DNA of 64,000 nt. Origin: a virus. This document shows positions 11,601-30,300 of this stretch, in pieces. The notes beneath the pieces were generated by a model that had not been told where the DNA came from, searched no databases, and saw only the letters and a list, made by a program, of their open reading frames with translations. The position numbers were made by a program, and so were the translations under genes. The stretch is taken from positions 1-64,000 of IMG/VR virus record IMGVR_UViG_3300021963_000049. One strand, given 5' to 3'. Numbering within the stretch: the first letter of the stretch is position 1; each line of letters begins with the position of its first letter.

Positions 11601-14600
11601 GATGAAGAAGTTATATAATAGAAAAGAGCAGTATTATAAAGACATAGTAAACTCTGAGCTTACTAACATCCAAAGAAATGAGATATTAAATACTCTTGCA
11701 GCTCAAGGTATTTATGTTGACTTAGAAGAATTTGCTAATTGGGTAGAAAACCATGATAATCTTCCTTCTTATTTTATAGATGCTCCTAAAGGCATGATCA
11801 TCAATGAGGGCAGTATCTTATATGATGAGTATATAAAAATCTTTGATGATGCTGCTACACTAGAGGATAATCTTCCATCTAGTAAGATGACTGATAAGGA
11901 AATAGTAGATAGCAGAATCAATGAGATAGAGGATGAGAGAGTTGAAAAACTAGACCAAGCTAAATCTAGATATAATACTGCTCTTAAGAAAGAGATAGGT
12001 TATGATGAAAAAGAGTATGGTGAGAAGAAACAAGAGCTTGCTAATCAGGAAACTGTTTTAGAATCAGAAAAAGTTCAGTTACAAGATAGAAAAAAACTAC
12101 TTGAAAAATCTATCAAACAACTTAACTCATCAGATATAATTGAAGTTCAAGGAGTTTATGCTGCGGCACAAGAACTTGGATATATAACTGATGAGCTTTA
12201 CCAACAGGCTGAAGAAGCGGTAATTGCTAATCCTGATAGACTTGCAGAAGCACAAAAAGCTTTAGCTAAATATGATCAATCAATTCCACAGCAAGATAGA
12301 GCTACCGCTGCATTCTATTCAGTTATACTAAAACCATTACTAGAAGATGCTATAGCTGAGATAGATGCTCAATTAGGCCAAGCTGCTCCTGAGTTAATTG
12401 ATCCGGTTACTACAAAATCATATGCAGTATTCCAAGAAGAGCTTAAAGCTATCAATGATAAGTATGATGGTCTAATACAGAATCTAAAGAATGACTTTAG
12501 AAAGCAAGGTATAAATCCAGATGCAGTAACTGAGATAACAGTAGAAACTCCGTATGAGCAAATGCCTCAAGATCTTAAAGACATATTAGATCCATTATTT
12601 GCTGAGCACTTAGAGTTTATTGAAATATCTCCAACACTAGCTGAAGTAGATCCAAATCAATACCAAAGTATTAGATCTAGATGGATTGAGTCTCAGGCAG
12701 CTGTTATTAGAAAATATAATACAGATAAAAAAGCAGAAGTTGCAGAAAGAGCTAAGAAATTAGCTGAGCCACCAGTATTAAAGTTTGCGCCAAAAGGTGA
12801 AAAGCCTGCAAAAATTACTGCTCAAACTAGTGGAACTGCATTATCTGAATACTATGAAAAGATTGCTAAGACTTTAGAAGACGGAGAATATACTAATAAG
12901 AAAAATGAACTAGTACAGTTAACTCCAGAAGATATTGAAAATATTAAAGCTGACTTAGCTGCATTAGAAGGTTATATTGATGCCAGAACAAAAACATATA
13001 GGCCTCAATCTATTGCTGAAGAAGTAGTAGACAATATAGTTAAGAATGTAATAAATGTACAAGACCAAGTAGTTGATGTATTTGATGAGTCTGGTAGAAA
13101 AATAGGTAGAAGATTTGCTGATACACCAGTAATTACAACAGGTGCTCCTATCTCTGCAACAACTGCTACTACAGATGCTAAAGCTGATATAGAAAGAAGA
13201 AGACAAGAAGAATTAACTGAACTCGGTCAAAAGCAATTAACAAAAGGTTTCAATACTTTATCAGAAGCAACCAAACCAGAACAAGTTGCTAATGCTATAG
13301 TAAATATTGAACAAAATAAAAATCAAGGAGCAAGGCTTTCAAAAGAACAAGAACAACAATTATCAGAAGCTAAGGCAAAATTAAAAAAAGAAGGATATGA
13401 AATAGTAGATTACAATATAGTTAGATACGGAGAGAATACAATAGTAGAAAGTGTAGATTTTTATAATAGTGAAAAAGATGTCCTTACAGAAGAACAAGCT
13501 AATGCAATAGAATCAAAAATAAATTCATTAGAAAAAAGAGGAGAAGAAGTTCATGTAGATGACTTGCCATCACCTGTATCAAGAACTATTAAACCACTAA
13601 TTAAAAAAGATGGGGTAATGGTTCAAGCCGCAAAAGTTAATACTTTAATTTTTGAAAGTGTTGAACAAGCAAGAGAAGCTATTAAAAAATCAAGAGAAGC
13701 TGGTAATAAAAAACCTAATGCAGCTGATAAAATCAATGCTAAATATGATGCAGAACTAGCTGCTTTAGGAACTGCTCCAACTCAGACAACTGAAGTTATA
13801 TCAAATCTACCTACTAGGGCTACAAAAGTTGCAGAACAAGTTGATCTTGAAATAACAGGTAAAGATCCTTTTCTTTATAATAGATTGGAGGATGAGACTA
13901 TTCAAAAAGACTTTAGAATAGCATTAAATAGCCAAGATATAAAGGATGAAGAGAGACTTAACTTCTTCATGACTGCATTTGAAAAGAAAAATTATCCTGC
14001 ATTTAGATCTAAGAGAAAACTAAAGTTACTTAGAACTTCTCTTGAAAATAATTTTACAGAGGAGAATCTAGTTAATACAGTACAAAGATTGGCTTATGAT
14101 GAGTCAACAATTGCTGGAGATAATGTAGATAATTTAATTAGAGATTTCTTAACTCCTGATGCTGTAACTGGATTTAAACAAATTACTTGGGATCCAAATG
14201 TAATGACAGAAGAGGCATTCAATACTTTATTTCATCCTGCAACAGGTATTGTAACTAAACTTAGACAAGGTATTATTGATGGTCAATATACTATCTTATC
14301 TGAGAATGTTAAAGTATTTGATAGAAATTATAAAGACAATGGTATCACAGGTGAGTTAGACTTATTAGCCATTGACAAAGATGGTAATGTCTCAATTATA
14401 GATATCAAAACTGGTAGATTTAAAAACTGGGAAGCCTATGGAACTGGTGCAAAATCAGATAAGCAAACATACTTCCGGGCTCAGCAATCTATATACAAAA
14501 ATCTATTCTATAACATGACTGGAATAGATGTCCAAAGAATAAGTTTATTACCTATTGGTATAACAACTGATCTTGATGGTAAGATACTAGAGCTTGGATT

Positions 14601-16959
14601 AACAGAACTTACACCTGAAGGTGAGGATACTCTTGAATTAGAATATCTTCCAGAAGTAGAGGCAGCTGGAGTAACTAAAATTGCACCAGTTGAGGCAGCT
14701 CCTACACCTACAACAGTAGCATCTACTGAAGATATAGAAACAAAAAGAAAAAGTGTCTTATTAAGAAAGGAAGATTTAAGTAAAGCTCCTGAGTTTGCAC
14801 AAAAAGCAATTGCTAAAACTGTAGAAGCTATAGATGAAGATATCAGACTACAAGTAATTGAAAAAGCTTATGAAGGAGTTACAGCAAGTCCGATTGCTAA
14901 AGAATTAGGATTAACCACAGAACAAGTAAGAAGTATAAGAACATACTATGGTGTACCTGATATAGCAGATAAACAAGATTATCAAAAATGGAAATCAGGT
15001 ATTGATGCAGAACTAGCTGCTTTAGAAAAAGGAGTTACCGAATCTAAAAAAACAATCCCACTATCTGATCCATCAAAAGTTTCACTAGAAGAAAACTTAA
15101 ACAAGCCGATTGTGTATAATGGCAGACTTGGTAAATTAATTCTTTTAGATGATGGGGTATTTGGTGTAGAGCTAGATCAATCTAGTAAAGTAACTGAATT
15201 AAGTCTAGTACTTGAAGGATTGAAAGCTAGTTTAGAAGTAGAGTTAGGTGAGTTTGGTAATCCTACACAAGCCGCAGAACTTAAAAATACAATTGCTGAA
15301 GTACAAACTGAGTTAGATAAACAAGCTCAAACTAAACAAATCATTGAGTTAACTAGAGATCTGATGCCAGTAAAAGATGGTAAACTATTACTATCTCAGG
15401 CAGGAATATTTCCAATTAATAATATAACTGAAGTAGCTCAAGTAACTGTAATAAATAAAGAGCAATATGATGCTAAGTTTGATGATCCATCAGAAAAAAC
15501 AGCAACAATAAATGGTGTTAAATACACAGTAAATAGAAATGCCCAAGGTAACATAGTTTCATTATCCTATGGAGTTAATGATAAAGCTATTGCAGACATA
15601 GAAGCTGAAACAAAAGCTATTTCAGATAGAATACAAAGTTTAAGAGCTAAGTTTTCTCAAGCCACAACTGAAGAAAAAAGTGTATTGTCTAAAGAGATAA
15701 GTACAGAACTTTCTAAGATTAATCAGCTTAACAGAAAAAGACTAGATCTTTTTGAATCTAATGCCCAGAGAACTGTTTCAGGTGGTAATGCAAACAATTT
15801 AATTTTTGCACTTAACAGACTTCCAAATAGTTTCCAAAAAGGACATCAGCAAAAGAAAGCTAGTGATGAAAAGAGAGAGTTAAAAGAAATAGCAAGTTTA
15901 TCTTCTGCATCAGATGCAGCAAATAAAGCAATGGATGATATCTTAGGATACCAGTATCCGGCTGCTTTAGACAAGCTATTTGAACAAGGTGTATCAAAAG
16001 TATCCAACCAGGATCTATATAAAATATCCATTTGGGCGGAGGATGCATTAGCTAAACTTGAAGAGTTAGCATCAATAATGTATAACAACAATGAAGTAGT
16101 AACAGATATATTTAATCAGATAAATGCTATAGAGGGTCTATTAAATGATCTTCAGTTAATTAAACTAACTAAAAATGGACAAATCAGCAAACAGCAACCA
16201 AAAGAACTCAAAGAACTCTTTGGACCAACAAGGAAAGAATTACCGAACAGGCCTAGTGTATCTGAGGTTCAAGTCCCTGTCGGAGGAAAAACAGAAGCAG
16301 TTTCTAGACAAGCAACAGATGAGGAACTTAGTAAACTCAGAGAAAAAGTAAGAAACATCAAGACTAAAGGTGATGAGCTTATTGGAGAAATTTCTTTAGA
16401 AGAAACTAAACCTACATCTCCAGTTGTTGAAGAAATTCAGAAAACAAAAGATCCGGTTAAGCTTAAAGAAATTTATGATAGAGCTATTATCCAAGAAGCT
16501 AAGAACCCAGGTACTGTAGATCTTAATGCTGCAAAAGAAGCCTTTGACCAAAGAATGACAGAAATTGCAACAGTAATGGACATAGAAAACATTGTTGTTG
16601 ATGAGCCGGTATTATCTAAAAAAGATATAGGTGAAGCTTTGGCAGGTAGCACTTTCTTAGTATCTTCGTTTAGAGGAAATAAGGTCTATATAACCAACCT
16701 AAAAACTGGTAAAGGCCAGTGGTACAATAATAGTGAACTTGTGGAAAATTTTAAGAAAGCTCCGGTAGAAGGTATAGAAATGGAAAAAGAAGTAGAACTT
16801 ACACTAGATGATGTTGAAGATTTCAAATTAAATACTGAAACAGTTAATAATACTCTAGAAGATATAGATGCATTAAATGCTGCAGCTAAATCTGTAGAGG
16901 AAGCTCAAACAAAAGGAAGTTTTAGAAATCAGTTGAAGAATAAAAATTGTAATATTTAA
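8686..16959 (+). CDS. Giant ejected virion protein 1, multidomain, with a PD-(D/E)XK nuclease domain
   Basis: 2757 aa; Gly/Ala hydrophobic segment (GALVGAAVGAAEGG...GAAIGGAAG); coiled coils; GELDLLAID...IIDIKTG...QQSIY nuclease motif at about 14341-14495. Confidence 0.75.
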   Translation: MAEENTTDPVGQMSNFNSFIDPAKIEMEAYKPIGTPALFDAHSLPGGNNISNPTYAIKDGTSGSAPNFPVNSASQVAKQGQDKGMLIAQKLKADLNLLEDKNNYSKIYAYDAGKNGAFKARYKAYGQETFDKVGFHPLIDNETWFNANTTGWDDFKRMMTHSALPLLTQGFMDPIKSYASFFGNGGDITGDSLGAASYDELSAIGYSTKGGFAGFTTNLVQSAAYSVGILAEGAVEGALVGAAVGAAEGGVTAIPGAAIGGAAGFLKSLWRLPSALAKMTFSFGKMAVNLNRAAKLAEAKNLFVNASKSMGNFFNPLENTKNAAMNYVFKNPDDLTALARTAKTAGALWHDAKNLNMALSEGRLEGGMAENRVYEKLYNDHYNVYGEPPDDAKQQEFHDIAKQANLTNTISNSLLVFYSNKIAFPSITQAKFLKGLPKTGFGTVIGNVGKEYQLVYTPAKDVAEAVYSAERVSLGNAVKAFVKPKIYGRVALNYFKKNLVEGFQEVSQDALATATEEYYTNTYYDPAAKNFQYAMGTLRGGFAKQMSAQGFETFLSGFAMGSILQTPSTIAKYMSIGYNKYYKYRDNYDEYLKNVGDSANEAVDALNTMHKNGKYFFDPRLGNYVNQVLIGKKIDDEDTRTKNEIKDDEFTAFTSAVTTALRTGTFDLFLNNFAGYKQASPKDIEEAWNLEEGQGEKALQSIDKAINGAKIIANRYNEAKKKMKYLRNLSDLEPGTEEYKMGQLYNEAYEAGLTNLVYMQSAFDDNLGRLNNLYQDLGNLKSLQEVGFTNVANLVEPGKLNREIQMLQTEIEAAETYTDPTAVEQVARKKSLLTAMTNFQKTQDGLVNAFVNNEIIKQRKAELLAEDSSLTPDSAEMKVIDELIQEYEDNQTNPFLEYKDAFAELLRAYVGTPEKQIQLEDEIMKKGGYDSMFDALVDTHIIRKGNAGLIQYINLLNDPKGFYEHIERNFEWMKKLYNRKEQYYKDIVNSELTNIQRNEILNTLAAQGIYVDLEEFANWVENHDNLPSYFIDAPKGMIINEGSILYDEYIKIFDDAATLEDNLPSSKMTDKEIVDSRINEIEDERVEKLDQAKSRYNTALKKEIGYDEKEYGEKKQELANQETVLESEKVQLQDRKKLLEKSIKQLNSSDIIEVQGVYAAAQELGYITDELYQQAEEAVIANPDRLAEAQKALAKYDQSIPQQDRATAAFYSVILKPLLEDAIAEIDAQLGQAAPELIDPVTTKSYAVFQEELKAINDKYDGLIQNLKNDFRKQGINPDAVTEITVETPYEQMPQDLKDILDPLFAEHLEFIEISPTLAEVDPNQYQSIRSRWIESQAAVIRKYNTDKKAEVAERAKKLAEPPVLKFAPKGEKPAKITAQTSGTALSEYYEKIAKTLEDGEYTNKKNELVQLTPEDIENIKADLAALEGYIDARTKTYRPQSIAEEVVDNIVKNVINVQDQVVDVFDESGRKIGRRFADTPVITTGAPISATTATTDAKADIERRRQEELTELGQKQLTKGFNTLSEATKPEQVANAIVNIEQNKNQGARLSKEQEQQLSEAKAKLKKEGYEIVDYNIVRYGENTIVESVDFYNSEKDVLTEEQANAIESKINSLEKRGEEVHVDDLPSPVSRTIKPLIKKDGVMVQAAKVNTLIFESVEQAREAIKKSREAGNKKPNAADKINAKYDAELAALGTAPTQTTEVISNLPTRATKVAEQVDLEITGKDPFLYNRLEDETIQKDFRIALNSQDIKDEERLNFFMTAFEKKNYPAFRSKRKLKLLRTSLENNFTEENLVNTVQRLAYDESTIAGDNVDNLIRDFLTPDAVTGFKQITWDPNVMTEEAFNTLFHPATGIVTKLRQGIIDGQYTILSENVKVFDRNYKDNGITGELDLLAIDKDGNVSIIDIKTGRFKNWEAYGTGAKSDKQTYFRAQQSIYKNLFYNMTGIDVQRISLLPIGITTDLDGKILELGLTELTPEGEDTLELEYLPEVEAAGVTKIAPVEAAPTPTTVASTEDIETKRKSVLLRKEDLSKAPEFAQKAIAKTVEAIDEDIRLQVIEKAYEGVTASPIAKELGLTTEQVRSIRTYYGVPDIADKQDYQKWKSGIDAELAALEKGVTESKKTIPLSDPSKVSLEENLNKPIVYNGRLGKLILLDDGVFGVELDQSSKVTELSLVLEGLKASLEVELGEFGNPTQAAELKNTIAEVQTELDKQAQTKQIIELTRDLMPVKDGKLLLSQAGIFPINNITEVAQVTVINKEQYDAKFDDPSEKTATINGVKYTVNRNAQGNIVSLSYGVNDKAIADIEAETKAISDRIQSLRAKFSQATTEEKSVLSKEISTELSKINQLNRKRLDLFESNAQRTVSGGNANNLIFALNRLPNSFQKGHQQKKASDEKRELKEIASLSSASDAANKAMDDILGYQYPAALDKLFEQGVSKVSNQDLYKISIWAEDALAKLEELASIMYNNNEVVTDIFNQINAIEGLLNDLQLIKLTKNGQISKQQPKELKELFGPTRKELPNRPSVSEVQVPVGGKTEAVSRQATDEELSKLREKVRNIKTKGDELIGEISLEETKPTSPVVEEIQKTKDPVKLKEIYDRAIIQEAKNPGTVDLNAAKEAFDQRMTEIATVMDIENIVVDEPVLSKKDIGEALAGSTFLVSSFRGNKVYITNLKTGKGQWYNNSELVENFKKAPVEGIEMEKEVELTLDDVEDFKLNTETVNNTLEDIDALNAAAKSVEEAQTKGSFRNQLKNKNCNI
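13746..15025 (+). repeat. 23-bp perfect intragenic direct repeat TGATGCAGAACTAGCTGCTTTAG (encodes DAELAAL)
   Basis: Copies at 13746-13768 and 15003-15025. Confidence 0.9.
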
Positions 16960-16963
16960 AAAA

Positions 16964-19900
16964 ATGGCTTGTTTATTAGATAAAGTAGATATTCTTGCAC
17001 TTTATAGTGACATCTATGAAGATATTTTAGGGAGAATTAATGGTGAGATAAAAACTAAATTTAATCCTGAAGAATATATTAAACAATTACATAATGAGAT
17101 TGCAGAGGTAAATGATCCTAAGTTTGCTTTAGAAGTAGCACAAGCTACTCCTGAAATCATGTTGCAGGTAATTGCTACAAGAAAAAATGTAAGAGAATAC
17201 TTTGTTAAAAATGAAATAAGCCAAGATCTAATTTCTAAAAGATCTATTGAGTTTGAGAACATAGATGAAGTTATAAAGTTTGTTGCTGTACCACAAAAGA
17301 CTAGAGAGGAAATAGATGAAGAGATTAAACAAGCTAATAAAGCTTCATATAATAAACCTCCTGCTGAACCTTTGCCGGCTAATATCCAGTGGTCATATAA
17401 TGAAAACAATGGTTATAAAGTTGCATATCCATTAGCAACTGTAGGTCAACAAGCTTATGCTGTAAATCCAGCAACAGCAACTGAAGCAGAAAAGAATGTA
17501 AAAGATCCTGAAAAAAATCTATTCTATGATGTTATTAAAGGCATAGTAGCTTTATCAAGAGCTAGAACTTCTGAATCTGATGAAATTATATATCAAGGAA
17601 GATCTCTAGCATTAACAGCTGTTAAAGATTCTGAATTTCCTGAAGATAGTATTACAGCAGCAGATAAAAAGTATCTAGAAAAACCAGATGCCCAAAGAGG
17701 TATCATTGCAGCAATAACAGATACTAATGGAGACTATATTTATTTTACCAATGATGGTGACATAACAGACAATCCAGACAATGGTAGAATTGTATACCAG
17801 TATCTTAGAAGGGTAAACCTAATTGGTGGCAAGCTTTATCTATCAAGTGAATCTGAAAAAAATATTACTCTTGTTCCTGCAGAAACTTTGGCAAAAAGAG
17901 AAGCCCAAAGAATGAGAGATAATGGTGTAGAGGTAACTGAAGAAGATGAAAAGCAAATAGTTAAAAGAATTGCTGATAAACAAACCAATGAGCTTAACCA
18001 GTTATATAGACTTAGGCAGTATATAATGAGTGATGAAGGTACTCCAGTTGTATTACCAATTAATGGTGGTACCTTTGGAATTAGTACAGAAAACATTAAA
18101 GTAATTTCATTTTTAGAGTCTGGATTAACAGAAGAAGATATTGCTAACTATCAGTTAATCAGTACTCCTGGTGAGTTTAATGGTCAAAACTTCTTTACTA
18201 TTACTACAAAAAAAGCAGGAGTACAAATTGATCAAAATATTTTTATGCAAAGAGGGGACATGGATAGAACTCTTGCTGAAAAAATTGCTACAGTATTAAC
18301 TACAACTGCTAAGTTAAAAGGTGAGGAGTTAACACCTGAAGAAAGGCAGAACTTTTTTGAAATCTTCATTAATAATACCACATCAAAGAAATATGGTGGA
18401 TTAAATAGAGATAGAATAACTGCAAAAGCCACATATAGAAATCGGAGATTAGTACTAGCTGTTAATATAAATGGTGAAGAAATACCTCAAGAAGAACTTT
18501 ATACAGAAGAGGCTAAGCAAAAGATAATCAACCACTTACTTGCTGCTGTTCCAAGTACAACAGAGGAAGGCAGATTATATCCTGCAAATATTCAGTATAA
18601 TAAAAAATACCACGGAGGTGAGTTTACAGATTATGAAATATCTGGTGATACAATTAAAGAAGTAAAGAAAAATCACTTTGATACTATTAAGCCTTACATT
18701 AAAATAATTTATAGTACTGAGGATGATAAACTTAAGAATGGTTTAAATGCATATTTAACTTATTCTATTCCTCAGAATATAGTTCCTGCCGGAGAAGTAA
18801 ATTACCAACCAGGAATTCCGCAGCCTAAAAAAACAGAAACAGAAACTAAAAAAGTAACTCAAGCTCCAGCAACAGTAGGAGCTCAGTTTACATATTACAA
18901 TAAATACTCAGATGCCAAAGCTGCTCATAATGATAAGAAGGGAACTTGGGGTCTAAGACCAGCATTAGGTCTTGAGCCAGTAGTTCCTTTTCAGGAACAC
19001 TTTGGAAATCCTTGGGATATAAAAGAAGACAAGTTAAATAAAGTAAAAGCAGTTGATACTCTAGAAGAAGCAGTACAAAACTATGAAGACTGGCTTACTG
19101 GTAAGAAGTTTAAGAATATTCAGAAAGAAAGAAGAAAGTGGATACTTGATCAGATTAATTCTGGAGCCTTAGATACTGCTAATTTTATTTATTATAATCC
19201 TAGAAAAACTGTTAAGACTCATGTTCATGTATTAGTGGATATGATTAATAACAGAGATAAAACAAAAGCTCCTGAGATTGTTGAGCCGGCACCAGTAAAA
19301 ACAACAAAAGAAGAGAAAGTTGAGGTTGACAAAAAAATCTTAAATCTACAAAGTGTTCTTAGCATGCCTTCAAGAACATTGTATAAGAGAGAAAAAGTTA
19401 GACAGAGTTTTCTTGATAGAGTGTTTACATCTAAAGCTGATCTTAAAAAAGCAGATAACTGGTGGAATAACTCAGGTCTATCTCAGATAAAAGTAAATGG
19501 TAAAGTATTATTACCACTTGAAAGAATAACAGAGATAGTTAATTCAGATGCATTTGCCACATTTACAGAAAATGGTATTACATTATATGAGGCTGATGGT
19601 GGTACTCCAATAGATCTTTACCATGAGGCATGGCACGGGTTCTCTCAGCTTGTCCTTACTCCAGAACAAAAGACTGATTTATATAATGAACTTAGAACAT
19701 ATCCTAAGTGGTCTAATGCAGAGTTCTTTGATATAGAGGAGGATATTGCTGAAGACTTCAGATCATTTATGAAGTTCAATAAAAAATTCCCGGGCTTATT
19801 AGGAAAAATATTTGAAGCAATAGGTAAGTTACTTAGAAAGCTTTATGGTAGAATTACCAGACAAGATATGACAAGACCAAGAGATATTGCTTCTGTAAGA

Positions 19901-22900
19901 GAATATTTTGACTTGTTATATAAATCAGATAAGAATCCTGAAGTATTCCAACAGTTTAGTCCAAGTGTAAACAATTTAATGTTTACAAAGTTGAATAGAT
20001 CTAAAACTATTCAGCCTCTTAAAGCTCAGGCAAAGCATTATCTTGAGTTTACATTAGAAGAGAGTACTAAAGCTGTAAGAGTTATAGATAGTTTAATTGG
20101 AATTGAGTTTCAAAACTATAACAGAGATAACAATACAACTGCCGGAGCAGTAAGAATTTTAGCTAATCCACAGAATAGATCATTGCTTTATAGATCAGTT
20201 AGAGATAGACTAGAGAATATTAGAATAGCTTATACTGAAGCATATGAAAAAGCTTTCTTTGAAAATGAGGAATCTGAAAATCCAGATCTATTCTTACAGC
20301 AGGATCTAGAAAACAAGATGCTATATTTTACAAAGCTTGTAGAAAACTTTGGAGATGTAGATCTTTCATTAGAAGGAAAACAAAAGACTGGTGTGGTTGC
20401 ATATCACATGAAGAAGTCTAAGTTTTCTGCAATTAAACAAGCCTATGCTGATTTAACTGAAGATCCAACTGATTTAGATAACAGTCAAATATTTAAGCAA
20501 GATGGTGGTAATACAGTAGCTTCTAAAGATATTGCAAGTGAAGAAACCATGATGTTGTTGTCTAGTATATTTAAAGTACAGAGAACAGCAGATGGGGAAA
20601 TAGAAGAAATAACTGATGAGTTTGGTATTCCTGAGTTAGAAGATCCAGATACTATTTGGAATAGACTTGCAAAAGTTCTTGCTGGTTCATTTGATGAAAC
20701 TGAAATGTATAAGAGAATAGTTGAAAGTTCAAATAACTATCCTGAGTTTTATCAATTGCAAAGTTTATTGCCAAATCCATATGTTCTTTCTCCAGGAAGT
20801 TATGTAACTAACACAGAGTTTGATACTGAAACTAAGTTTTGGCAGGATCTTAAAAAGCCAAGGATACCATATATACAGTTAAATCTTACAAAGAATACTG
20901 AAGGAAAGAGAGCTGGTACATATGAAGCTAGGCTTTCAAAGGCAAACTTTGATGTATATAAAGTTATCAGTGACTGGTCTTCTAATTTTATTACAGCTGA
21001 TACTTCTGTTAACCCTTATATAGTTGAGGATGGTTATAACAGAAACATGCTTGACATTGATAAGTTACTAGATCCTAAAAAGTTTGGTAATAAAGAGTTA
21101 CTTAACAGTGCAGAGTCTATTGAGTTATTAAAAGCATTAGGAATTAATCTTGATACAAGTAGCCCAGCAATTATGGCTATTGTAAATAGTAGGAGTCAAC
21201 TTTTCTCTAATAGATTTGGTATCAATAGAATTTTAAGTGTTCTAAAGCAAGTAAATAAAGCTACAGATCAAGGAGCAATAGATGAATTCAGAAGAACACC
21301 ATTAACATTTTTACTTAATGGGTTATCCTATGATTTAAGGATAGATAAGTCAGAGACTGAAGAAATGAAAACTAGGATAAGAGTCTTGGCTGAATTACAA
21401 AACATGTATTCTGATTCATATTCTAACTTTAGTGTATTGAGTCCAGAAAGAAACAGAGTATGGGAGCATTTCTTAGATAATACAATCACTAGAGTTGTAA
21501 CATCACTTAGAAAAGCTGAAAACTGGGAAGAGCTTACATCTGATGAGGCTGATCCAAATGGTATTTTTAAACACATGAGATGGTTGTCTGAGAATAATAA
21601 TACATTCTCTAACTTCTCTAAGTTATTAAATACTGTATTCTATCTTGATCCATTATCAAAAAACTACGGTAAAAAGAAACCAGATGCAAATCTTGTATTA
21701 AATAATGTAGCAGGTACACAGTTAGTTGGTAAAAGCTATGATGAAACTACTGGAGTTTCTACAGCATCAATGGATGCTACAAGTAAATTCCTACAAGAGT
21801 TTAATACTTTATTGTTAAATGGTATAGAGGAGTTCATGAGGCATGCTTCTAAGAACACTGCAATGGGATTAACTTCAGCAACTAAAATAGAAACTTATCA
21901 AGGTAAAAACTCAGATAAGTTATATGTTGATGTTGAGGCATTTAGACCTGGTAGTTTTGGGGAATCCAAAGCCTTTGATATCATATCCGGATATTTATCT
22001 GGTGAGGCTAACAGAATCTTTAGATTTAGTTCTGATATAAAGAAGTTTGCACAGTTTGCAGGTTATAATAGAGAGGTAAGAAGAAAGGATGGCAGAATAG
22101 TTATGGCCGGTCAAGCATTTACTGCATTTGATGATGTCTTATCTTTAAACATACAGAAAGAACTATATACAATTATAGATAATGCTGTTAAGAATAAACA
22201 AGCAGACTTCAATATGATGGATGTTCTAGATCAAGATTTAGATTTAAGAGCCAGAGTAGAGAAAGATGTTAGAAATTATTTTGATAAGCAAACACAAAAA
22301 AACCAAGATAGATTAAATAAAGCAAGATATGTAGATGCATCATTAGTAAATAAAGCTGATGTTCAATATATAGATCTTACTTTAGATCAAGTAGACAATA
22401 TACTTGTTAAAGCATATAGTTACAACTCTTGGATACATAAGTTTGAGACTGCAATAATTGCCTATGGTGACTTTGCACAATACAATCATGAAAAAGAAGA
22501 GTTCCATAAAAGAAATGCTGGTTTAGGCTCAGGTGGTAGAGGATTCCGTGCAGATTTAAGAGCCCAGACTTTTGTAAATAATCCTACTCTATTCAAGAGA
22601 TATTATGCAGATAGAATGGGTTATGCTACAAGAAAGTATGATGGTACTTTACATACTGCTATAATTAAAGAGATAGAGTTACCATCAAAAATGTATGATG
22701 AGTATCATAAAGAACTTGTAGATGTATATACTAAAAGACTAGGTAATAAAGAAGAGGCTAAGAAGTTGGCAGATACTGCAATGAAAGAGTATAAGTCAAT
22801 GAAGATTGCAGATGGTCAAGGTCACATAACTTTTGAGACATATAGAATGCTTAAGAAACTTGAGGGTAACTGGACTGATCCACAAGAAAAATTATACAGG

Positions 22901-23509
22901 CAAGTATCACTTGGAGAAAATATTGCTATAGAAGATGTAGTAGAGTATTTTCCACCTTATAAGCTGCAGTATTATGGTAATATTCAAACTACTGGTCTTC
23001 CAGTAACTTCATTCCATAAGTTCTCACTTGCTCCAATTATACCTGGTGTTGCTAAGGAAGGTACTCCACTTTATGATTTGCATCAACAGATGATGGCTCA
23101 GAAAATAGACTATGCTTTATTTGAGTCTGGTTCTAAAGTTGGGCATATTGGATCAGGAGATCAAATACTAAATCCTGATGGTACCTTTAATAAAGATGTG
23201 CAGTTTACTAACAATGTAGTTTTTGCTGAGTATCTTAAGAATCAGACAGAAGTAAATTCAAGCTTTAAGAAAAAATCTATCTTCTCTACTCAGATGAGAA
23301 AGTTAATTCTTGAAGGTTTGTATGAGAAAGGTGTGATTGATACAACAGAGGAAGATAAGATAACATCTCCAATAGTAAATAAATATCTTAATGATGTTTC
23401 TGAGTATACAGACTTGTTAAAGCTAGAGTTCTTAGAAGAAATAGGCTATGATGAAACTACTCCGGGAGAGTATACTCCTAGAGATAAGAACAGCATGGGT
23501 AACTTGTGA
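16964..23509 (+). CDS. Virion RNA polymerase, N-terminal part (zincin HExxH motif, DUF4326-like insert, probable first double-psi barrel region)
   Basis: 2181 aa; HEAWH at 19622-19636; ADGQGHIT at about 22808-22831; overlaps the DFDID-bearing ORF by GTGA. Confidence 0.75.
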   Translation: MACLLDKVDILALYSDIYEDILGRINGEIKTKFNPEEYIKQLHNEIAEVNDPKFALEVAQATPEIMLQVIATRKNVREYFVKNEISQDLISKRSIEFENIDEVIKFVAVPQKTREEIDEEIKQANKASYNKPPAEPLPANIQWSYNENNGYKVAYPLATVGQQAYAVNPATATEAEKNVKDPEKNLFYDVIKGIVALSRARTSESDEIIYQGRSLALTAVKDSEFPEDSITAADKKYLEKPDAQRGIIAAITDTNGDYIYFTNDGDITDNPDNGRIVYQYLRRVNLIGGKLYLSSESEKNITLVPAETLAKREAQRMRDNGVEVTEEDEKQIVKRIADKQTNELNQLYRLRQYIMSDEGTPVVLPINGGTFGISTENIKVISFLESGLTEEDIANYQLISTPGEFNGQNFFTITTKKAGVQIDQNIFMQRGDMDRTLAEKIATVLTTTAKLKGEELTPEERQNFFEIFINNTTSKKYGGLNRDRITAKATYRNRRLVLAVNINGEEIPQEELYTEEAKQKIINHLLAAVPSTTEEGRLYPANIQYNKKYHGGEFTDYEISGDTIKEVKKNHFDTIKPYIKIIYSTEDDKLKNGLNAYLTYSIPQNIVPAGEVNYQPGIPQPKKTETETKKVTQAPATVGAQFTYYNKYSDAKAAHNDKKGTWGLRPALGLEPVVPFQEHFGNPWDIKEDKLNKVKAVDTLEEAVQNYEDWLTGKKFKNIQKERRKWILDQINSGALDTANFIYYNPRKTVKTHVHVLVDMINNRDKTKAPEIVEPAPVKTTKEEKVEVDKKILNLQSVLSMPSRTLYKREKVRQSFLDRVFTSKADLKKADNWWNNSGLSQIKVNGKVLLPLERITEIVNSDAFATFTENGITLYEADGGTPIDLYHEAWHGFSQLVLTPEQKTDLYNELRTYPKWSNAEFFDIEEDIAEDFRSFMKFNKKFPGLLGKIFEAIGKLLRKLYGRITRQDMTRPRDIASVREYFDLLYKSDKNPEVFQQFSPSVNNLMFTKLNRSKTIQPLKAQAKHYLEFTLEESTKAVRVIDSLIGIEFQNYNRDNNTTAGAVRILANPQNRSLLYRSVRDRLENIRIAYTEAYEKAFFENEESENPDLFLQQDLENKMLYFTKLVENFGDVDLSLEGKQKTGVVAYHMKKSKFSAIKQAYADLTEDPTDLDNSQIFKQDGGNTVASKDIASEETMMLLSSIFKVQRTADGEIEEITDEFGIPELEDPDTIWNRLAKVLAGSFDETEMYKRIVESSNNYPEFYQLQSLLPNPYVLSPGSYVTNTEFDTETKFWQDLKKPRIPYIQLNLTKNTEGKRAGTYEARLSKANFDVYKVISDWSSNFITADTSVNPYIVEDGYNRNMLDIDKLLDPKKFGNKELLNSAESIELLKALGINLDTSSPAIMAIVNSRSQLFSNRFGINRILSVLKQVNKATDQGAIDEFRRTPLTFLLNGLSYDLRIDKSETEEMKTRIRVLAELQNMYSDSYSNFSVLSPERNRVWEHFLDNTITRVVTSLRKAENWEELTSDEADPNGIFKHMRWLSENNNTFSNFSKLLNTVFYLDPLSKNYGKKKPDANLVLNNVAGTQLVGKSYDETTGVSTASMDATSKFLQEFNTLLLNGIEEFMRHASKNTAMGLTSATKIETYQGKNSDKLYVDVEAFRPGSFGESKAFDIISGYLSGEANRIFRFSSDIKKFAQFAGYNREVRRKDGRIVMAGQAFTAFDDVLSLNIQKELYTIIDNAVKNKQADFNMMDVLDQDLDLRARVEKDVRNYFDKQTQKNQDRLNKARYVDASLVNKADVQYIDLTLDQVDNILVKAYSYNSWIHKFETAIIAYGDFAQYNHEKEEFHKRNAGLGSGGRGFRADLRAQTFVNNPTLFKRYYADRMGYATRKYDGTLHTAIIKEIELPSKMYDEYHKELVDVYTKRLGNKEEAKKLADTAMKEYKSMKIADGQGHITFETYRMLKKLEGNWTDPQEKLYRQVSLGENIAIEDVVEYFPPYKLQYYGNIQTTGLPVTSFHKFSLAPIIPGVAKEGTPLYDLHQQMMAQKIDYALFESGSKVGHIGSGDQILNPDGTFNKDVQFTNNVVFAEYLKNQTEVNSSFKKKSIFSTQMRKLILEGLYEKGVIDTTEEDKITSPIVNKYLNDVSEYTDLLKLEFLEEIGYDETTPGEYTPRDKNSMGNL

Positions 23510-26500
23510 ATATAATTAGAGAGAACTTAGAAAGAGAAGACTTGCTAAGTGATGATTTAATAGAATTCATAGATGTATATGATACTACTGGAGACTTGGT
23601 ACATGACTTATCTTTGCATCCAGACTCTGGTAAAATTGAAAAGCTTTTGCTTTCAATGATTAATAAAAGAATTATTAAGCAAAAAGTAAAAGGTGAGCCA
23701 CTAGTTCAAGTATCTTCTGGTTTTTATGAAAATACATTCAGAACTCCTGCTAATTTAAAAGGAGCAACAGATGAGCAAAGAAAGAAGTGGAATGCAACTA
23801 ACTTATTACCAACTTATTACAGAAAAGCAAATGGTTTAACTGCTGCTATGAAAGTAATGGTTGCAATGCAAGGAGATTATTACAGTTTATTTAATCTAGA
23901 ATATGCTAATGGAGAAACCATTGGTATGTTTAATGAAGAGGGTGTTTTAGATATGAACAAATCTCTGGCTAGATTAAATGAGAAAATAAAAGATGATGCT
24001 TGGTTAGATGCAGATAATGGAGCTAACAGAAAAGCAATTACTATGGTGGGTGTTAGGATACCAGTTCAGGGTCTTAACTCTATGGAATTCATGGAAGTAT
24101 TTGAGTTCTTACCACCACAAGCAGGTAACATTATTATTCCACCAGCAGAAATAGTTGCTAAGTCAGGGGGTGACTTTGATATTGATAAGTTAACAATCTT
24201 CATGACTAACTTAAACTCAGAAGGAAAGATCAAAGGAAAAATACTTGATGATAATGCCTGGGTTAAAGAAAGAATTAAAGAACTAAGAGAGTCTGGGGAA
24301 TCAGTATCACAAATGTTCTCTGAACAAAAAGCAGGTTTAGAGAATGAGCTAATAGAAGATATCAGAAAGATACTTGAGCTACCACAGAACTACTCATCAC
24401 TTATTACACCAAATGGTACCTTCTTATTAAAATCTATTGCTGAAGACTTAGCACAGGATGTAATGGACTATGATCCATTTGAAAACATGAGCTCTGAGGA
24501 AAGTAACATTAGTGCTGATGGTAAGAAAAAAGTAATCAGCCCAACAAGAGTACTGGAAGCATTATATAATGTCTACAAGCATGAGTCTAATATAGTAGGT
24601 AAGAAGACATTAGGACTAGGAGCTATTGAGAACACATTTAATGTAATCATGAATGCTGCCGGTGCATATATGCCTTCTGTATATGGTACAGCTGAACAGC
24701 CAAGAGAATCTTTATTATTTTTAAGACATAACAAAGACACAGATCCTAATGGAAGAGAAGTAATCTCTATCTCTAGTAGATTTGATGTAGATAACAAAAA
24801 CAAAATAGCTGATGTTATCTCACAGATGATGAATGGCTGGGTGGATGTTGAGAAAGATGCATGGATCTTCTTTATCCAGGGTAACTATGAAGTGGCTCCA
24901 AGCTTATTATATCTGATCAAAGCTGGTGTACCAGTTAAAGAAGCTATTTACTTTGTATCAAATCCATTAGTAAGAGACTATGTAAATGAGCAAAGAATGG
25001 CTAAGTCTACATATGCAGATGTGTTAGGAAAGAAACCAGACTCACCAAATTTTGCAAAATATCAAGCAGCCTCTGAGGTTATTACTAAATATTTTAAAGC
25101 TGATGAGCTTGGTAAGTTCTCTAAAAACTATGATAGATACCTATTAGGTAAAGAGTTATCTGAGAAAGTTCTTGAGGGCAGAGATGAGGATAAAAAATAT
25201 TTCACTGAAAATGAAATGAGAAAACTGATAGCTGATTATAAAACAGGAACAGCTACAGATAAACAAATGGACATGTCAAAAGCAATGTTCTTGCATTATC
25301 TTCAGATAGAAAACCAAATAGGTGGTCTTACTCAGTTAAAGATGAATACTAACCCAGATACAAGTACTAAATCTACTTTGTCTGATGTAGAAAGAACTGA
25401 GTCAAACATAGATAACTTAATGTATGATAACAGAATTGCACCGGAGCTTTTGGGAACATTAATGAATGACTCAGTATTAAAATCATTTTTTAATGGAGAC
25501 TTAGCTCTAGCAGTGAGTAGACCATTATTCAAACTAAGATATCACAAAGCAATAAGTGATTACTTAATTGTAAAAGGTCAAACTTTAAAAGAAGCATCTG
25601 AATCTACATTTGGAGAAAATAGAGTGGATACTTTTATCAATACATTCAGAAATGATATAGTAAGCTTCATCTTCCAGAATGCATTAAGAAGATACAAACT
25701 TGGAGATTCTTACATGTCTTATAATCTTAAGATGGAAGTTCCAGTTAAGTATGCTGCTGAGTTAAAAAGAGGAGCTTTTGTTAAAGAAGAAACTGATGGA
25801 ACAAAGACATTATATGTTGATGAGAAACAGTTAAGAAAAGAATTCATAGACAAAGCTTGGGCTAAAAATTCTGATGCTGAGAATTCATATACTGATAGAG
25901 GATTATATCCACTAGAGTTAGCAGCCTTTATGAAGAATAAGGACTTGAACTTTAACCAGTACTTAAGATTTGTAGCAGAAAGAGAATACATAAGATCTAT
26001 AGAACCAATTTCTGAAGTATCTGAAACTAAGTATTTTAAATCTCAGATGAAAGCTGTAAAACAAGTAAATCCAGATTTAGCAAATGAAAAAGTTGCAAGG
26101 TTTACATATGAGAAGTATATAGCAGAAAAAGCTCTAGAGAATACATTCAATTTACACTACATGTTTAAGAAGAAAGAATCAGCCTTGGCTGTTAAGTATT
26201 CTGACTTCTTAATAAACAATAGAGAGCTTGCATCTAAGTATAGAGTGTTGAGTGTACTAAAACTGGATACAAACCAGGATGACAGTACCTTTAATATCTA
26301 CCTGGCAGATAAAGACTTGAACAATGAAAAGGCTACTGAATACACTAAGAATTTAATGGATCTTTCCAATGTCAATGTTAAAAAAGTATCAGATCCAGAA
26401 GAAAATGCAAGGATCAGTGAGATGTTCTCTAAGTTATCTCTATTCGCATTCATGCAGACAGGTCTTAATAAATCTAAACTAAGCTTTACTAGCATAGTAA

Positions 26501-27336
26501 ACTATAGTGACTTCTTAGATATTGTTGAGAAAGAGTCAGAGTTATTCCAAAAAGCATTGGACAAAAATGGAAATGCAATCTTGGATAACTTCTTTAGCAT
26601 CTTCATGAGAGAAAACAATGTTTATAACCAGGATAAAAATAGATTCAAAGACTATTTATCTACTCTTGACTATGGTAATCTAGATAAGGTAGCTGGATTA
26701 ACTGCAACTACTGCAAAAAGAAAGTCTAAAGAAACTACACCTACTGATGAAAGTATAACCGATGAGCCGGTAATATTCCAAAGATTTGGCTTGAAGGAAA
26801 CAAGAAATCCTAATATCTTGACTTATAACACAACTGATAAGGATAACTTATTCTATGAAGAACTAAGTGATAAGAATAAAGATGTAGTATTTGCATACAA
26901 TGTTACTTTCTTGGAGCTTAAAGAGAAGTTCTTAAAATCATTCCCGGGACAAAGTTCTTTCAATAGATTTGCTCCAGACATGAGTATAAATATTCCAACC
27001 AGTTTGAATAAGCCAGATGATAGCCATTCACTAACCAATCCAGCAGTATTCAAAGATCTTATAGATTTATTTGAGAGAAGGATACAAGCACTTAAAGAAT
27101 TGTCTGATTCTGGTATTAAAATAGCTTTCCCTGAGACAGGTTTTGGTAATCCAGGTAAGATGCCTCAAGAATTATTTGTATATTTAAGTAGGAGGTTATA
27201 TGAAGAATTTGGATATTTGAATCCTGGTTCTACAGTATATGAAGAATTAAGAGAAATTGTAGGTGAATCCCAAGGTATAACTGATGAAGAAATTCTACAG
27301 AGATTAGGCCTAGAGGAAGATCCATTTAAATGCTAA
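23506..27336 (+). CDS. Virion RNA polymerase, C-terminal catalytic part
   Basis: 1276 aa; RIPVQG followed by SGGDFDIDKL (DxDxD, 24172-24186), the signature of crAss-like two-barrel virion RNAPs. Confidence 0.88.
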   Translation: MNIIRENLEREDLLSDDLIEFIDVYDTTGDLVHDLSLHPDSGKIEKLLLSMINKRIIKQKVKGEPLVQVSSGFYENTFRTPANLKGATDEQRKKWNATNLLPTYYRKANGLTAAMKVMVAMQGDYYSLFNLEYANGETIGMFNEEGVLDMNKSLARLNEKIKDDAWLDADNGANRKAITMVGVRIPVQGLNSMEFMEVFEFLPPQAGNIIIPPAEIVAKSGGDFDIDKLTIFMTNLNSEGKIKGKILDDNAWVKERIKELRESGESVSQMFSEQKAGLENELIEDIRKILELPQNYSSLITPNGTFLLKSIAEDLAQDVMDYDPFENMSSEESNISADGKKKVISPTRVLEALYNVYKHESNIVGKKTLGLGAIENTFNVIMNAAGAYMPSVYGTAEQPRESLLFLRHNKDTDPNGREVISISSRFDVDNKNKIADVISQMMNGWVDVEKDAWIFFIQGNYEVAPSLLYLIKAGVPVKEAIYFVSNPLVRDYVNEQRMAKSTYADVLGKKPDSPNFAKYQAASEVITKYFKADELGKFSKNYDRYLLGKELSEKVLEGRDEDKKYFTENEMRKLIADYKTGTATDKQMDMSKAMFLHYLQIENQIGGLTQLKMNTNPDTSTKSTLSDVERTESNIDNLMYDNRIAPELLGTLMNDSVLKSFFNGDLALAVSRPLFKLRYHKAISDYLIVKGQTLKEASESTFGENRVDTFINTFRNDIVSFIFQNALRRYKLGDSYMSYNLKMEVPVKYAAELKRGAFVKEETDGTKTLYVDEKQLRKEFIDKAWAKNSDAENSYTDRGLYPLELAAFMKNKDLNFNQYLRFVAEREYIRSIEPISEVSETKYFKSQMKAVKQVNPDLANEKVARFTYEKYIAEKALENTFNLHYMFKKKESALAVKYSDFLINNRELASKYRVLSVLKLDTNQDDSTFNIYLADKDLNNEKATEYTKNLMDLSNVNVKKVSDPEENARISEMFSKLSLFAFMQTGLNKSKLSFTSIVNYSDFLDIVEKESELFQKALDKNGNAILDNFFSIFMRENNVYNQDKNRFKDYLSTLDYGNLDKVAGLTATTAKRKSKETTPTDESITDEPVIFQRFGLKETRNPNILTYNTTDKDNLFYEELSDKNKDVVFAYNVTFLELKEKFLKSFPGQSSFNRFAPDMSINIPTSLNKPDDSHSLTNPAVFKDLIDLFERRIQALKELSDSGIKIAFPETGFGNPGKMPQELFVYLSRRLYEEFGYLNPGSTVYEELREIVGESQGITDEEILQRLGLEEDPFKC

Positions 27337-27340
27337 TAAA

Positions 27341-30300
27341 ATGGTTTGTGAAGTTAAAGTCAACTCAATAAGGTTTTTACAGAATAATGGTGCTATTGAT
27401 GACATAAGAACAATAACTAATCTTAATAGATTTGAGGAGCTTAATGATAAGCTTACAAGAGTTGCTATAGAAAAGTATGGGTTGAATACTGGTGGCCAAC
27501 AGTTATTTGCTGTCAATACATCTGAGCTAACAGATAGAAAAGGTTCAAGATATTGGAGAGATAATAAGATAGATATCAAAAGAGCTATACCTAATGACAG
27601 GTTATTTGATGAACTACAGGCTCTTAAAAATATTAAGGATAACAGACCGGAGGCTCCTATGTTTATGAAAACTCCAGATGTAGACTTTTCATTAAAAATT
27701 GTAGGTGCTTTAGATAAAATAAACAGAAATAAGTTTGAGTCTTCAAAGTTACAAGGTTGGTTGAATGATCTTCAAAAACAAGGTGTATCTGCACAACAAC
27801 TTGAATTATTTAAAGAAGTTGCAAAACCAGGTATGACTAAAGAAGAAATAGCTGCTGCTATTACTGCTACTTATAGTTATACTGTTGAGATTAATATTGC
27901 TAAAGAGGTTAAGCCAATAGGTAGTGATGGAGAATATTTTGATGAAAATGGTCAACAAATAAGTAAAAAAGAATTTGAAAACTTATCTAAAGATAGACCT
28001 ACTCAGTATTATTCTAACCTAACAGTCCCAGGAGGAACTAACTATATAGAAAATGAATTAGCCACACCTGCTATTATACCAAGTATTAAAGGACATGCTC
28101 AGTTTGCTACAGATAAAGGTATAGGTTGGTTTAGAAGTGATGATAAGGTAGAAGCTATATCAAAACAAGTTTCAAAATCTAAAGTAAATTTTAAAGAAAG
28201 TGAAGATAGGGTAGAAAAAAGAGGTGATAAATGGGTTGCAATTAATAATACAATTGGAGTATTGGATACTTTTAATACAAAAGAAGAAGCTTTATCTTTT
28301 TTAGGTTTAGATGTATCTGAAAAAATAAAAGTAAGTGATGTTAAAACTCGTAGAATACTAGAATTCCAATCTGATTTGTTTCAGAAAGGTAGAGAGTCTG
28401 AATTATTGGTTAATACTTTAAACAGGGATAGAAAAGATAATGTAAGAATACTACAATTAGAAAATATATCTTATGATAGAAATCTTACTAAAGAAGAAGA
28501 ACAAGAATTGAGAAAACTAAATGAACCTAATTTTAATAAAGAAGGTAATCAATTCTTACAACTCCTAAACAAAAACAACAACTGGGTAACATTCTTTATT
28601 AAATCTATTGTACAAGATAGTGCTAAGAAAGGATATGAGAAAGTATTATTTCCTAGTGGTAATACAGCTAGTAAAGTAGAAGGACATACTACTTTAGAAG
28701 AGTTTAAGAAGCAGAAACAAGATAGGATTAAAGAACTTGAGAAAGAAAATCAAGAACTTAAAAATAAAAAATTAGATCTTGAAGTTGAAAAAGCTTATGC
28801 ATCTTTATTTGAACCAATAACACAAGAACAATTTGATAAAGCAAATAAAAATCAAATTGAAAGTAATAATAGAGAAATAAACCAACTTAAACAAGAACTT
28901 GAAAGAGTAGAAGGACCAGAAGGATTTGGTGCTTTAAGACCTATATTTAACTTCTATGAAACAACTGTAGCTAATATCCTTAAAAAACAAGGATATAATC
29001 CTAAGCAAGTTACAGATGAGTATGGTAATACTTGGAATGAAATAAGTATAGAATCTACAAGAGATTTAGGTACAATCATGATGATGAGACCAGATGCCTT
29101 AGTAGATGTTCAAGGTATTCCAATGGTTAATATTGATTTAGGCACTATAAATAATGCTAGATCAAAAGAGATTGGAAATGTATTGGGTCAAAGACTATCT
29201 CAAAGCATGCAGCAAGGTTTTCAAAATATTACTGAAGCTGAGGCAAGAGAACTATTAAAAGCTAGAAAGATACCATATAATGGTGAGCCGGCCTTTTACT
29301 TTGCAGGAACAGTATATGTTGTTGGAGATAATATAAATATAGATACAGTTCTCCATGAATTCTCTCATCCATTATTACAAGGTATAAGAAGATCTAATCC
29401 TAAGTTGTTTAATAACCTCTATAATCTTTTAAAAGGCACAACTGAAGGAGAGCAAATAATAGAATTAGTAAAACAGAGATACCCTGAATTAGAAGAAGAA
29501 AGTGATCTATTTAAAGAAGAAGCATTAGCTTGGAGTCTTCAAAGGAAAGCTTCAAATAAAGTGACTCAACAGGTTGAAACTGAGGGCTTTGACAATTATA
29601 TAAAGAAGATACTTGCAGCTATAAAACAGTTCTTAAGAAATGTATTTGGTGATAAAGTAAATGTAGCTAAGCTAGATGTTAATACTACTCTGGATGAACT
29701 TGCAGACATGCTTTTGGAAAAAGATTTTCAGTTTGAAACTCCAAAAGTTACTGAGGAGGATATAATCATGTATGGTAAGTTCATGCTGTCTGCTGCTGAA
29801 AGAGCTACAGAACTAACTAAAGTAAGTAGTTCAAAATCATTAGAGCAGCTTATTAAAGAAGTATATACCAGAAACTTAGAGCTTTTAAATACAGCAAGAA
29901 AGTTTAAATCAGACAAGGTAATAGGTAATATGATGAAGGAGTCTTTATTTAGAAAAGGAACCTCAGAATATTTACCTGGAATCCAAAGAACATTAAGAGA
30001 TTATCTTGAAGATTTAAGCAAGCCAAATGTTAATGAGCTTATAGAAAATGCAATTAATGCTGAGGAAAGAAGAATCAAAGAAGACAATGCAAGGGCAACT
30101 GCACTAGTAACTTCACTAGATACTATCAATACTACAGTAGATAATATACTCAAGGATCTAAGAAAGATAGAGAATCTACCTAATTTAAATTCAAGAAGTG
30201 TAATTGGGCTTTTAGGTTTATATAAAAGTTTAGCCAGTGCATGGTATGAAAACATAAAAGACATTGATGCAATTCTATCTGAAGAAGTAGATGTAGATGT

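Follow-up and report, generated by a model that had tools for sequence, protein, structure and literature searches.

The window analysed here, 64,000 nucleotides (nt) of viral DNA (positions 1 to 64,000 of IMG/VR record IMGVR_UViG_3300021963_000049), contains three consecutive giant genes that code for a protein of the cargo type (protein 1), an RNA polymerase of the virion type, and a third giant protein (protein 3). Cysteines occur in these proteins only at the termini that face each other across the two gene junctions, and such facing pairs recur at the corresponding boundaries of relatives. On the basis of this pattern, and with the disulfide described between two ejection proteins of phage A4 as precedent, we consider it probable (about 0.6) that, in the virion, disulfides join protein 1 to the polymerase and the polymerase to protein 3, head to tail.

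Cysteines in the three giant proteins

Every open reading frame (ORF) of the window with at least 150 amino acids (aa) was translated and its cysteines were counted. The polymerase is present in the record as two ORFs, ORF2 (2181 aa, with a single Cys at residue 3) and ORF3 (1276 aa, with a single Cys as its last residue), giving four giant ORFs with 8661 aa in sum. The direct count finds four Cys in them, all at facing termini (Table 1), and none at the N-terminus of protein 1 or at the C-terminus of protein 3. At both junctions that bear Cys, 4 nt lie between the stop codon and the next ATG. A sequence-only reading of this DNA had reported four Cys in 8661 aa, each within three residues of a facing terminus, with the outer ends free of Cys; the count is exact (the KNKNCNI tail of protein 1 included), the outer ends are as stated, and the four ORFs hold no internal Cys that had been missed. 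The same reading took the joint between ORF2 and ORF3 for an internal split of the polymerase without Cys. There is indeed no Cys at that place, but the split itself comes down to one missing A, and the proteins are three, not four.

The evidence for the missing base is as follows. In each of the public runs X1, X2, and X3, the single Logan contig covering the site (region 22800–24200) has an extra A behind position 23500. Runs X1 and X2 are possible sources of the window DNA and are therefore not independent; X3 belongs to another study, and its contig also differs from the window at many other places. Run X4 gave no contig over the site. With the added A, ORF2 and ORF3 fall into one frame of ~3457 aa, in which residue 3 and the last residue are the sole Cys. 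The joint is read straight through in all 11 relatives inspected, with aligned residues on both sides, and the typical polymerase representative of the library search described below is likewise one protein of 3200–3700 aa (this holds for most of the 124 representatives with at least 3000 aa). A genuine Cys-free split of the polymerase is rejected by the extra A in the X1, X2, and X3 contigs, and we regard the ORF2/ORF3 joint as an artefact of the record, a sequencing error and no real boundary. Since the junction without Cys is then no boundary, three proteins and two junctions remain, each junction with a Cys pair.

Table 1. Coordinates of the cargo genes and of their terminal cysteine codons in the window
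Feature	Position	Strand	Remarks
Protein 1, giant cargo-type protein, adjoins the polymerase gene on its 5′ side	8686..16959	+	2757 aa; sole Cys is residue 2755
Cys2755 codon of protein 1 (TGT), third residue from the end	16948..16950	+	
Virion-type RNA polymerase	16964..27336	+	In the record as ORF2 (16964-23509) and ORF3 (23506-27336)
Cys3 codon of the polymerase (TGT)	16970..16972	+	C3 invariant in 19 sequences
Apparent frameshift, A run one base short in the record	23500..23509	+	Logan contigs and read-through in relatives
DFDID catalytic motif of the polymerase	24172..24186	+	Residues 223-227 of ORF3
C-terminal Cys codon of the polymerase (TGC), last residue	27331..27333	+	Invariant in 22 sequences
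Protein 3	27341..34684	+	2447 aa; sole Cys is residue 3
Cys3 codon of protein 3 (TGT)	27347..27349	+	

Conservation of the terminal cysteines

The window clade, as used here, consists of the window and 41 IMG/VR loci obtained in a scan with ORF3 (25–61% identity to ORF3). Loci L104–L106, which are weak short matches, enter none of the counts given here. Boundaries were counted between adjacent ORFs of at least 450 aa, leaving out one pair that lies 1256 nt apart (L027). At 70 of the 71 boundaries, a Cys occurs within 10 residues of the upstream C-end together with another within 7 residues of the downstream N-end (50 of 51 when distinct 30-residue tail pairs are counted), and the sole miss is the frameshift artefact of the window itself. 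The giant proteins of the clade contain 129 Cys in 236,330 distinct residues (0.055%), five of them internal. When the 200 C-terminal residues of protein 1 are aligned for 19 loci, Cys is the sole invariant column, at a mean column identity of 24%. The N-terminal Cys of protein 3 is spread over columns in the MAFFT alignment because its offset varies, and a direct count finds it in every locus. In the clade, the offsets of the terminal Cys range from 1 to 10 at the C-end and from 3 to 7 at the N-end. Both Cys codons are used at the terminal positions (TGT 119 times, TGC 21 times).

At the same loci, the other ORFs have a Cys content of 1.06%. With such a content, ~91 Cys are expected in 8661 aa, and the Poisson probability of four or fewer is ~6e-34. 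Given four Cys, the probability of finding one in each of four 3-residue windows is ~3e-13. As a control, 84 further complete ORFs from these loci were inspected: Cys occurs among the first 7 residues in one ORF and among the last 10 in two. Chance is excluded as the origin of the pattern in the window.

An independent library of 1.84 billion cluster representatives was searched with the last 1200 residues of the polymerase as the only query, yielding 1295 proteins at E ≤0.001. The best 150 of these 1295 were examined, and 26 below 3000 aa were dropped as fragments; the counts that follow refer to the 124 left. Cys is found among the last 12 residues in 124/124 and among the first 8 in 116/124, and 94 of the 124 are free of Cys elsewhere (46 internal Cys in 446,360 aa). 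Together with the boundary counts, these figures support the view that the terminal Cys are a selected and paired feature, acting at the protein level and tied to gene boundaries.

Named crAss-like genomes

Sixteen named genomes were compared: crAss001, DAC15, phi14:2, IAS, cr108_1, cr1_1, cr50_1, cr10_1, cr118_1, cr114_1, cr115_1, cr7_1, Fpv1, p-crAssphage, crAss002, and cr271_1. The pair is present at every separate boundary, once two starts are re-read and an ambiguous site in IAS virus is set aside, and the rule extends in this way over the order of crAss-like phages. In phi14:2, with three separate genes (gp078-gp077-gp076), the Cys are at −1, at 3 and −2, and at 3, respectively (negative numbers are counted back from the C-end). 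In crAss001 (gp47-gp50-gp49), they are at −3, at 5 and −9 with one further internal Cys, and at 5; in DAC15, at −3, at 5 and −1 with three internal Cys, and at 4 with one internal Cys. In both crAss001 and DAC15, protein 1 is encoded on the strand opposite to the polymerase and its C-terminal Cys is still kept, so that the feature does not depend on adjacent genes. The C-terminal Cys of protein 1 is kept in 43/43 crAss001-like contigs, and the pair between polymerase and protein 3 is found at 50/50 crAss001-like boundaries (12 of them distinct).

Some records called for a correction or were set aside. The N-terminal Cys of crAss002 gp33 (L110, 17088-17190) is at residue 35 from the annotated start, with an in-frame Met at residue 33; a start at Met33 gives Met-Ser-Cys, like p-crAssphage and cr271_1, and the annotated start is, by this comparison, probably too far upstream. 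In cr10_1 (L112), a long unannotated ORF with Cys at residue 5 lies directly after the fused giant gene (~24750 onward) and is probably the protein 3 missing from the annotation. For IAS virus, a polyprotein of all three proteins was considered and rejected: the polymerase is in two ORFs with an ambiguous joint. A Bohxovirus record contains no ORF of at least 900 aa, even with TAG or TGA read through, and was left out of the comparison.

Fused genes and boundaries made by inserts

Flavobacterium phage Fpv1, the steigvirus cr108_1, and seven Suoliviridae encode protein 1 and the polymerase as one ORF. In these fused proteins, both the inferred junction interval and the new N-terminus are free of Cys (8/8, with cr7_1 left out); the intervals are approximate, the BLAST anchors of the protein 1 end and of the polymerase start lying 100–250 residues from the ends. 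The same genomes keep the Cys pair at the boundary with protein 3. Fpv1 gp33 has one Cys in 4401 residues, at −2. The other fusion, between polymerase and protein 3, is found in p-crAssphage, crAss002, and cr271_1: the C-terminal Cys of the polymerase is gone, the N-terminal one is kept, and the pair between protein 1 and the polymerase is retained.

Boundaries that result from inserts behave differently from those between proteins. A boundary due to a group I intron-like insert in the polymerase gene of one crAss001-like locus (L082) has no Cys pair. This insert (4390-5233) contains an ORF of 181 aa and resembles a group I intron with a score of 44 bits, short of the Rfam gathering threshold of 50 (E 1.2e-9), and similar gaps of ~840 nt occur in the crAss001-like polymerase genes of L077, L083, and L092. 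In cr108_1 (L122, 20405-20696), an insert of ~290 nt interrupts the DFDxD motif of the polymerase, and the resulting boundary is also without Cys pair; the insert is probably another intron.

Identity of the module

Residues 176–491 of ORF3 align with residues 1314–1656 of phi14:2 gp077, catalytic motif included (BLASTP, E 1e-12), and the C-terminal part of ORF2 matches genes annotated as "putative RNA polymerase" in gut crAss-like phages. From the DFDID motif, this alignment, and the ORF2 matches, the window is assigned to a distant crAss-like phage, and the gene block to a protein 1–polymerase–protein 3 cargo module. An identification of ORF2 with phi14:2 gp66 itself was rejected, since phi14:2 is a distinct record and DFDID is located in ORF3. 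No PHROGs family was obtained for any of the four giant ORFs, and PDB sequence searches (phmmer) with ORF2 and ORF3 gave no match. With Pfam, protein 3 contains LysM near its C-terminus (residues 2125–2163), and protein 1 gives sub-threshold matches only. Protein 3 has an HExxH motif at residue 672, and an HExxH of the zincin kind appears in the consensus of the first 300 residues of protein 3 relatives.

The cargo module is reported to be present in the virions of phi14:2 and crAss001 (bioRxiv 10.1101/2020.03.07.982082; PMC10172136). By analogy with these two phages, the polymerase of the window would also be packaged and ejected. Both follow the same Cys rule as the window, and phi14:2 gp077 is the crystallised 2180-aa virion RNA polymerase, although its identity to the window is low (24% around the DFDID motif).

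Comparison with other ejection systems

The closest precedent comes from the cyanopodophage A4. In the cryo-electron microscopy (cryo-EM) structure of its pre-ejectosome, the C-terminal helix of gp27 inserts into gp26 (PNAS 2025, PMC12002296), where Cys1715 of gp27 and Cys5 of gp26 are joined by a disulfide that stabilises the contact (PMC12002296). In the record of Anabaena phage A-4L, the sole Cys of gp27 (1717 aa) is at −3 and the sole Cys of gp26 (1114 aa) is at residue 5. As in the window, these are consecutive large ejection proteins, otherwise free of Cys, with single Cys at the facing termini. The A4 system differs in having one link and two proteins, without a polymerase, and the passages of PMC12002296 that describe the link state no rule and no tie to gene fusion. 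Comparison of A4 gp26 and gp27 with the termini of the window proteins detected no homology (hhalign probabilities 0.1–0.3%). We take the A4 and window proteins to be unrelated and to use the same device.

Other ejected proteins have lost Cys altogether. In N4 (L118), the virion RNA polymerase (3500 aa), gp51, and gp52 contain 0 Cys in 4294 aa; in T7 (L121), gp15 and gp16 contain 0 Cys in 2065 aa, and gp14 has one Cys, at residue 2. The N4 proteins and T7 gp15 and gp16 thus resemble those of the window in being purged of Cys. In N4, however, the three parts are linked by peptide bonds and there is no terminal Cys, and in T7 there are no facing pairs. A recent article on N4 compares three crass proteins with the three parts of the N4 enzyme (PMC13434306). 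Judging from these counts, the purge of Cys seems common among ejected proteins, with the facing pairs as a special addition.

Two other ways of relating adjacent proteins do not fit the junctions of the window. A polyprotein processed by a protease would need a continuous frame, and both junctions have a stop codon followed by 4 nt. For a split intein, halves of tens of residues would have to flank the junction Cys, and there is no room for them: 0–2 residues follow the Cys at the C-ends, and at the N-ends the Cys is residue 3. In favour of a disulfide link, such bonds do exist in crassvirus particles, namely in tail and portal-vertex proteins of the crAss001 virion (PMC10172136), although these join folded structural subunits and not the ends of ejected proteins.

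A probable head-to-tail disulfide chain and its alternatives

In the favoured reading, each boundary of the module would be bridged by the C-terminal Cys of the upstream protein and the N-terminal Cys of the downstream one. The intermolecular disulfide would most likely form once the particle is assembled, giving, in this phage group, a covalent chain protein 1–polymerase–protein 3 of ~8660 residues. The remainder of each protein, being free of Cys, would prevent wrong pairings. The stubs beyond the Cys are short (at most 10 residues at the C-end and 7 at the N-end in the window clade) and may let the joint pass through the narrow tail channel. One protein could then draw the next through the tail, and the reducing cytoplasm could separate the members of the chain. 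Such threading and release would fit the view that cargo must partly unfold for passage through the tail (PMC10172136). A complex prediction for the first joint, made with custom alignments, lends weak support to contact between the two termini: the C-terminal 200 aa of protein 1 paired with the N-terminal 500 aa of the polymerase give a score of 0.58 (runs 0.64, 0.52, and 0.58), the best of three controls being 0.00, with an agreement between runs in at least 71% of contacts and a predicted local distance difference test (pLDDT) value of at least 70 for the partner. The mark used is reached by 58 of 80 solved complexes and by 2 of 110 mismatched pairs.

A more far-reaching proposal is that the disulfide chain, of ~1 megadalton (MDa), is the unit of ejection, the exit of the first protein pulling the others, and that reduction both frees and activates the self-inhibited polymerase. 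On this view, A4 would suggest that podophages without common descent of these proteins arrived at one design. We put this forward tentatively and consider it rather doubtful.

The terminal Cys could instead form their bonds elsewhere, in a homodimer or with another virion part, be it a smaller cargo protein, the portal, or the interior of the capsid, and the termini would then serve as anchors. The lone terminal Cys of p-crAssphage gp47, crAss002 gp30, and T7 gp14 could be understood in this way, and crAss001 has many disulfides between its tail proteins (PMC10172136). Yet each C-terminal Cys has, in every architecture, an N-terminal counterpart on the protein that follows in the module, both vanish together when the two proteins are fused, and the same signature in A4 is a link between different proteins (PMC12002296), which makes anchoring improbable. 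A role of the paired Cys in assembly or after entry, either as a transient covalent hand-over during packaging or as a redox switch of the self-inhibited polymerase, would fit the observation that the phi14:2 polymerase is self-inhibited in the crystal with its activation unexplained (bioRxiv 10.1101/2020.03.07.982082). We give it little weight: proteins 1 and 3, which are not polymerases, carry the same Cys, and the pair follows gene boundaries and not polymerase domains.

Coordination of a metal ion by the two Cys, in place of a disulfide, appears even less plausible. His or acidic residues do stand beside the Cys in some tails, but the neighbours of the Cys are not conserved (within the last 200 residues of protein 1 no other column is invariant), two thiolates alone make a poor site, and the A4 pair is a disulfide (PMC12002296). 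Lastly, the pattern might be a by-product of a nucleotide signal at the junction, such as translational coupling or a promoter, or of chance in Cys-poor proteins, and the identical layout of both window junctions (stop, 4 nt, ATGG-TTGT) is what a nucleotide signal could produce. Such a signal is ruled out by the retention of Cys with genes on opposite strands, by the use of both codons, and by the variable offsets; against chance stand the control ORFs and the probability for the four terminal windows given above. The likelihood of either is negligible.

Several observations weigh against the disulfide chain or limit its support. Virions are assembled in a reducing cytoplasm and the gut relatives live without oxygen, which would require bond formation at a late stage or within the capsid. 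For crAss-like phages, the bond is proposed from the sequence pattern and from the A4 precedent. The phi14:2 polymerase was purified with dithiothreitol (DTT) and crystallised with DTT and tris(2-carboxyethyl)phosphine (TCEP) (bioRxiv 10.1101/2020.03.07.982082), and the cryo-EM of crAss001 left the cargo proteins unresolved (PMC10172136); for these reasons neither structure bears on the bond. The pass of the complex prediction is weak: with scores of 0.60 or less, the mark is reached by only 7 of the 80 solved complexes and by both mismatched pairs that pass. The fusion and fission events are few, with at least two, perhaps three, independent ones; states are shared by kin, and the counts ignore the tree. 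In the three fusions of polymerase and protein 3, BLAST failed to place the joint.

Some individual sequences also depart from the rule. The polymerase of IAS virus reads as two ORFs with Cys upstream only and runs of N at the joint, and the N-terminal Cys of crAss002 gp33 and of IAS fit only with a re-read start. Eight of the 124 polymerase representatives have no Cys in their first 8 residues, which may reflect wrong start calls. A lone C-terminal Cys without facing partner occurs in p-crAssphage gp47 (at −2) and crAss002 gp30 (at −8). These two are smaller proteins of the cargo type (L108, 857 aa, and L110, 557 aa), and the lone Cys is their sole Cys. Gut relatives, finally, carry more internal Cys than the window clade. 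Among gut polymerases, p-crAssphage gp44 has 7 internal Cys, cr271_1 g48 has 14, and cr7_1 has 12, compared with none in 94 of the 124 library representatives; the coded runs of the window clade are labelled marine, freshwater, or estuary. The difference in internal Cys between gut relatives and the window clade may reflect exposure to oxygen.

What had been proposed from the window alone was that the terminal pairs link the proteins in gene order, that conservation in relatives could be used as a check, and that no description of such links was known. Conservation is borne out by the clade and by the library counts. As to the links, the Cys are paired, follow the boundaries, are absent in fusions, and have a disulfide precedent in A4; the bond itself stays an inference for crAss-like virions. 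The claim of novelty holds for crAss-like phages in the literature searched, but not for the principle, a single A4 link being in print. No mention of cysteines or of disulfides for crAss-like cargo was found in full-text searches of the literature or in passages of the phi14:2 preprint, the crAss001 atlas, a Crassvirales review, and the 2026 N4 paper, supplements being outside this scope. The terminal Cys rule of crAss-like phages has accordingly no printed description in the literature searched. To it, the window contributes an exception that turns out to be a sequencing error, the count on independent library representatives, and the comparison with the steigvirus fusion cr108_1.

Other features of the window

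The block of large ORFs is located on the + strand of the window and is followed by replication genes on the opposite strand (DNA polymerase, exonuclease, primase, helicase). Directly 5′ of protein 1, an ORF of 1091 aa (5399-8674) is poor in Cys, with a single internal one (residue 659), and lies outside the chain of terminal Cys. A protein of 289 aa (57562-58431, − strand) matches spore photoproduct lyase (PF20903, E 5e-21).

Implications

The Cys rule is of use for annotation: introns in relatives, two questionable starts, and the false frameshift of the window were all flagged by it. Cultured phages (phi14:2, crAss001, DAC15) make the reading open to immediate test. Podophages have to bring a megadalton cargo, including a polymerase of 2200–3500 residues, through a narrow tail. 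A covalent head-to-tail tether would set both the order of ejection and its stoichiometry, and would explain why some phages have these proteins fused and others have them separate. Were the chain also the unit of ejection, infection would be gated by a redox step between particle and cell, and gene fusion (a peptide bond) and a terminal Cys pair (a disulfide) would be interchangeable solutions.

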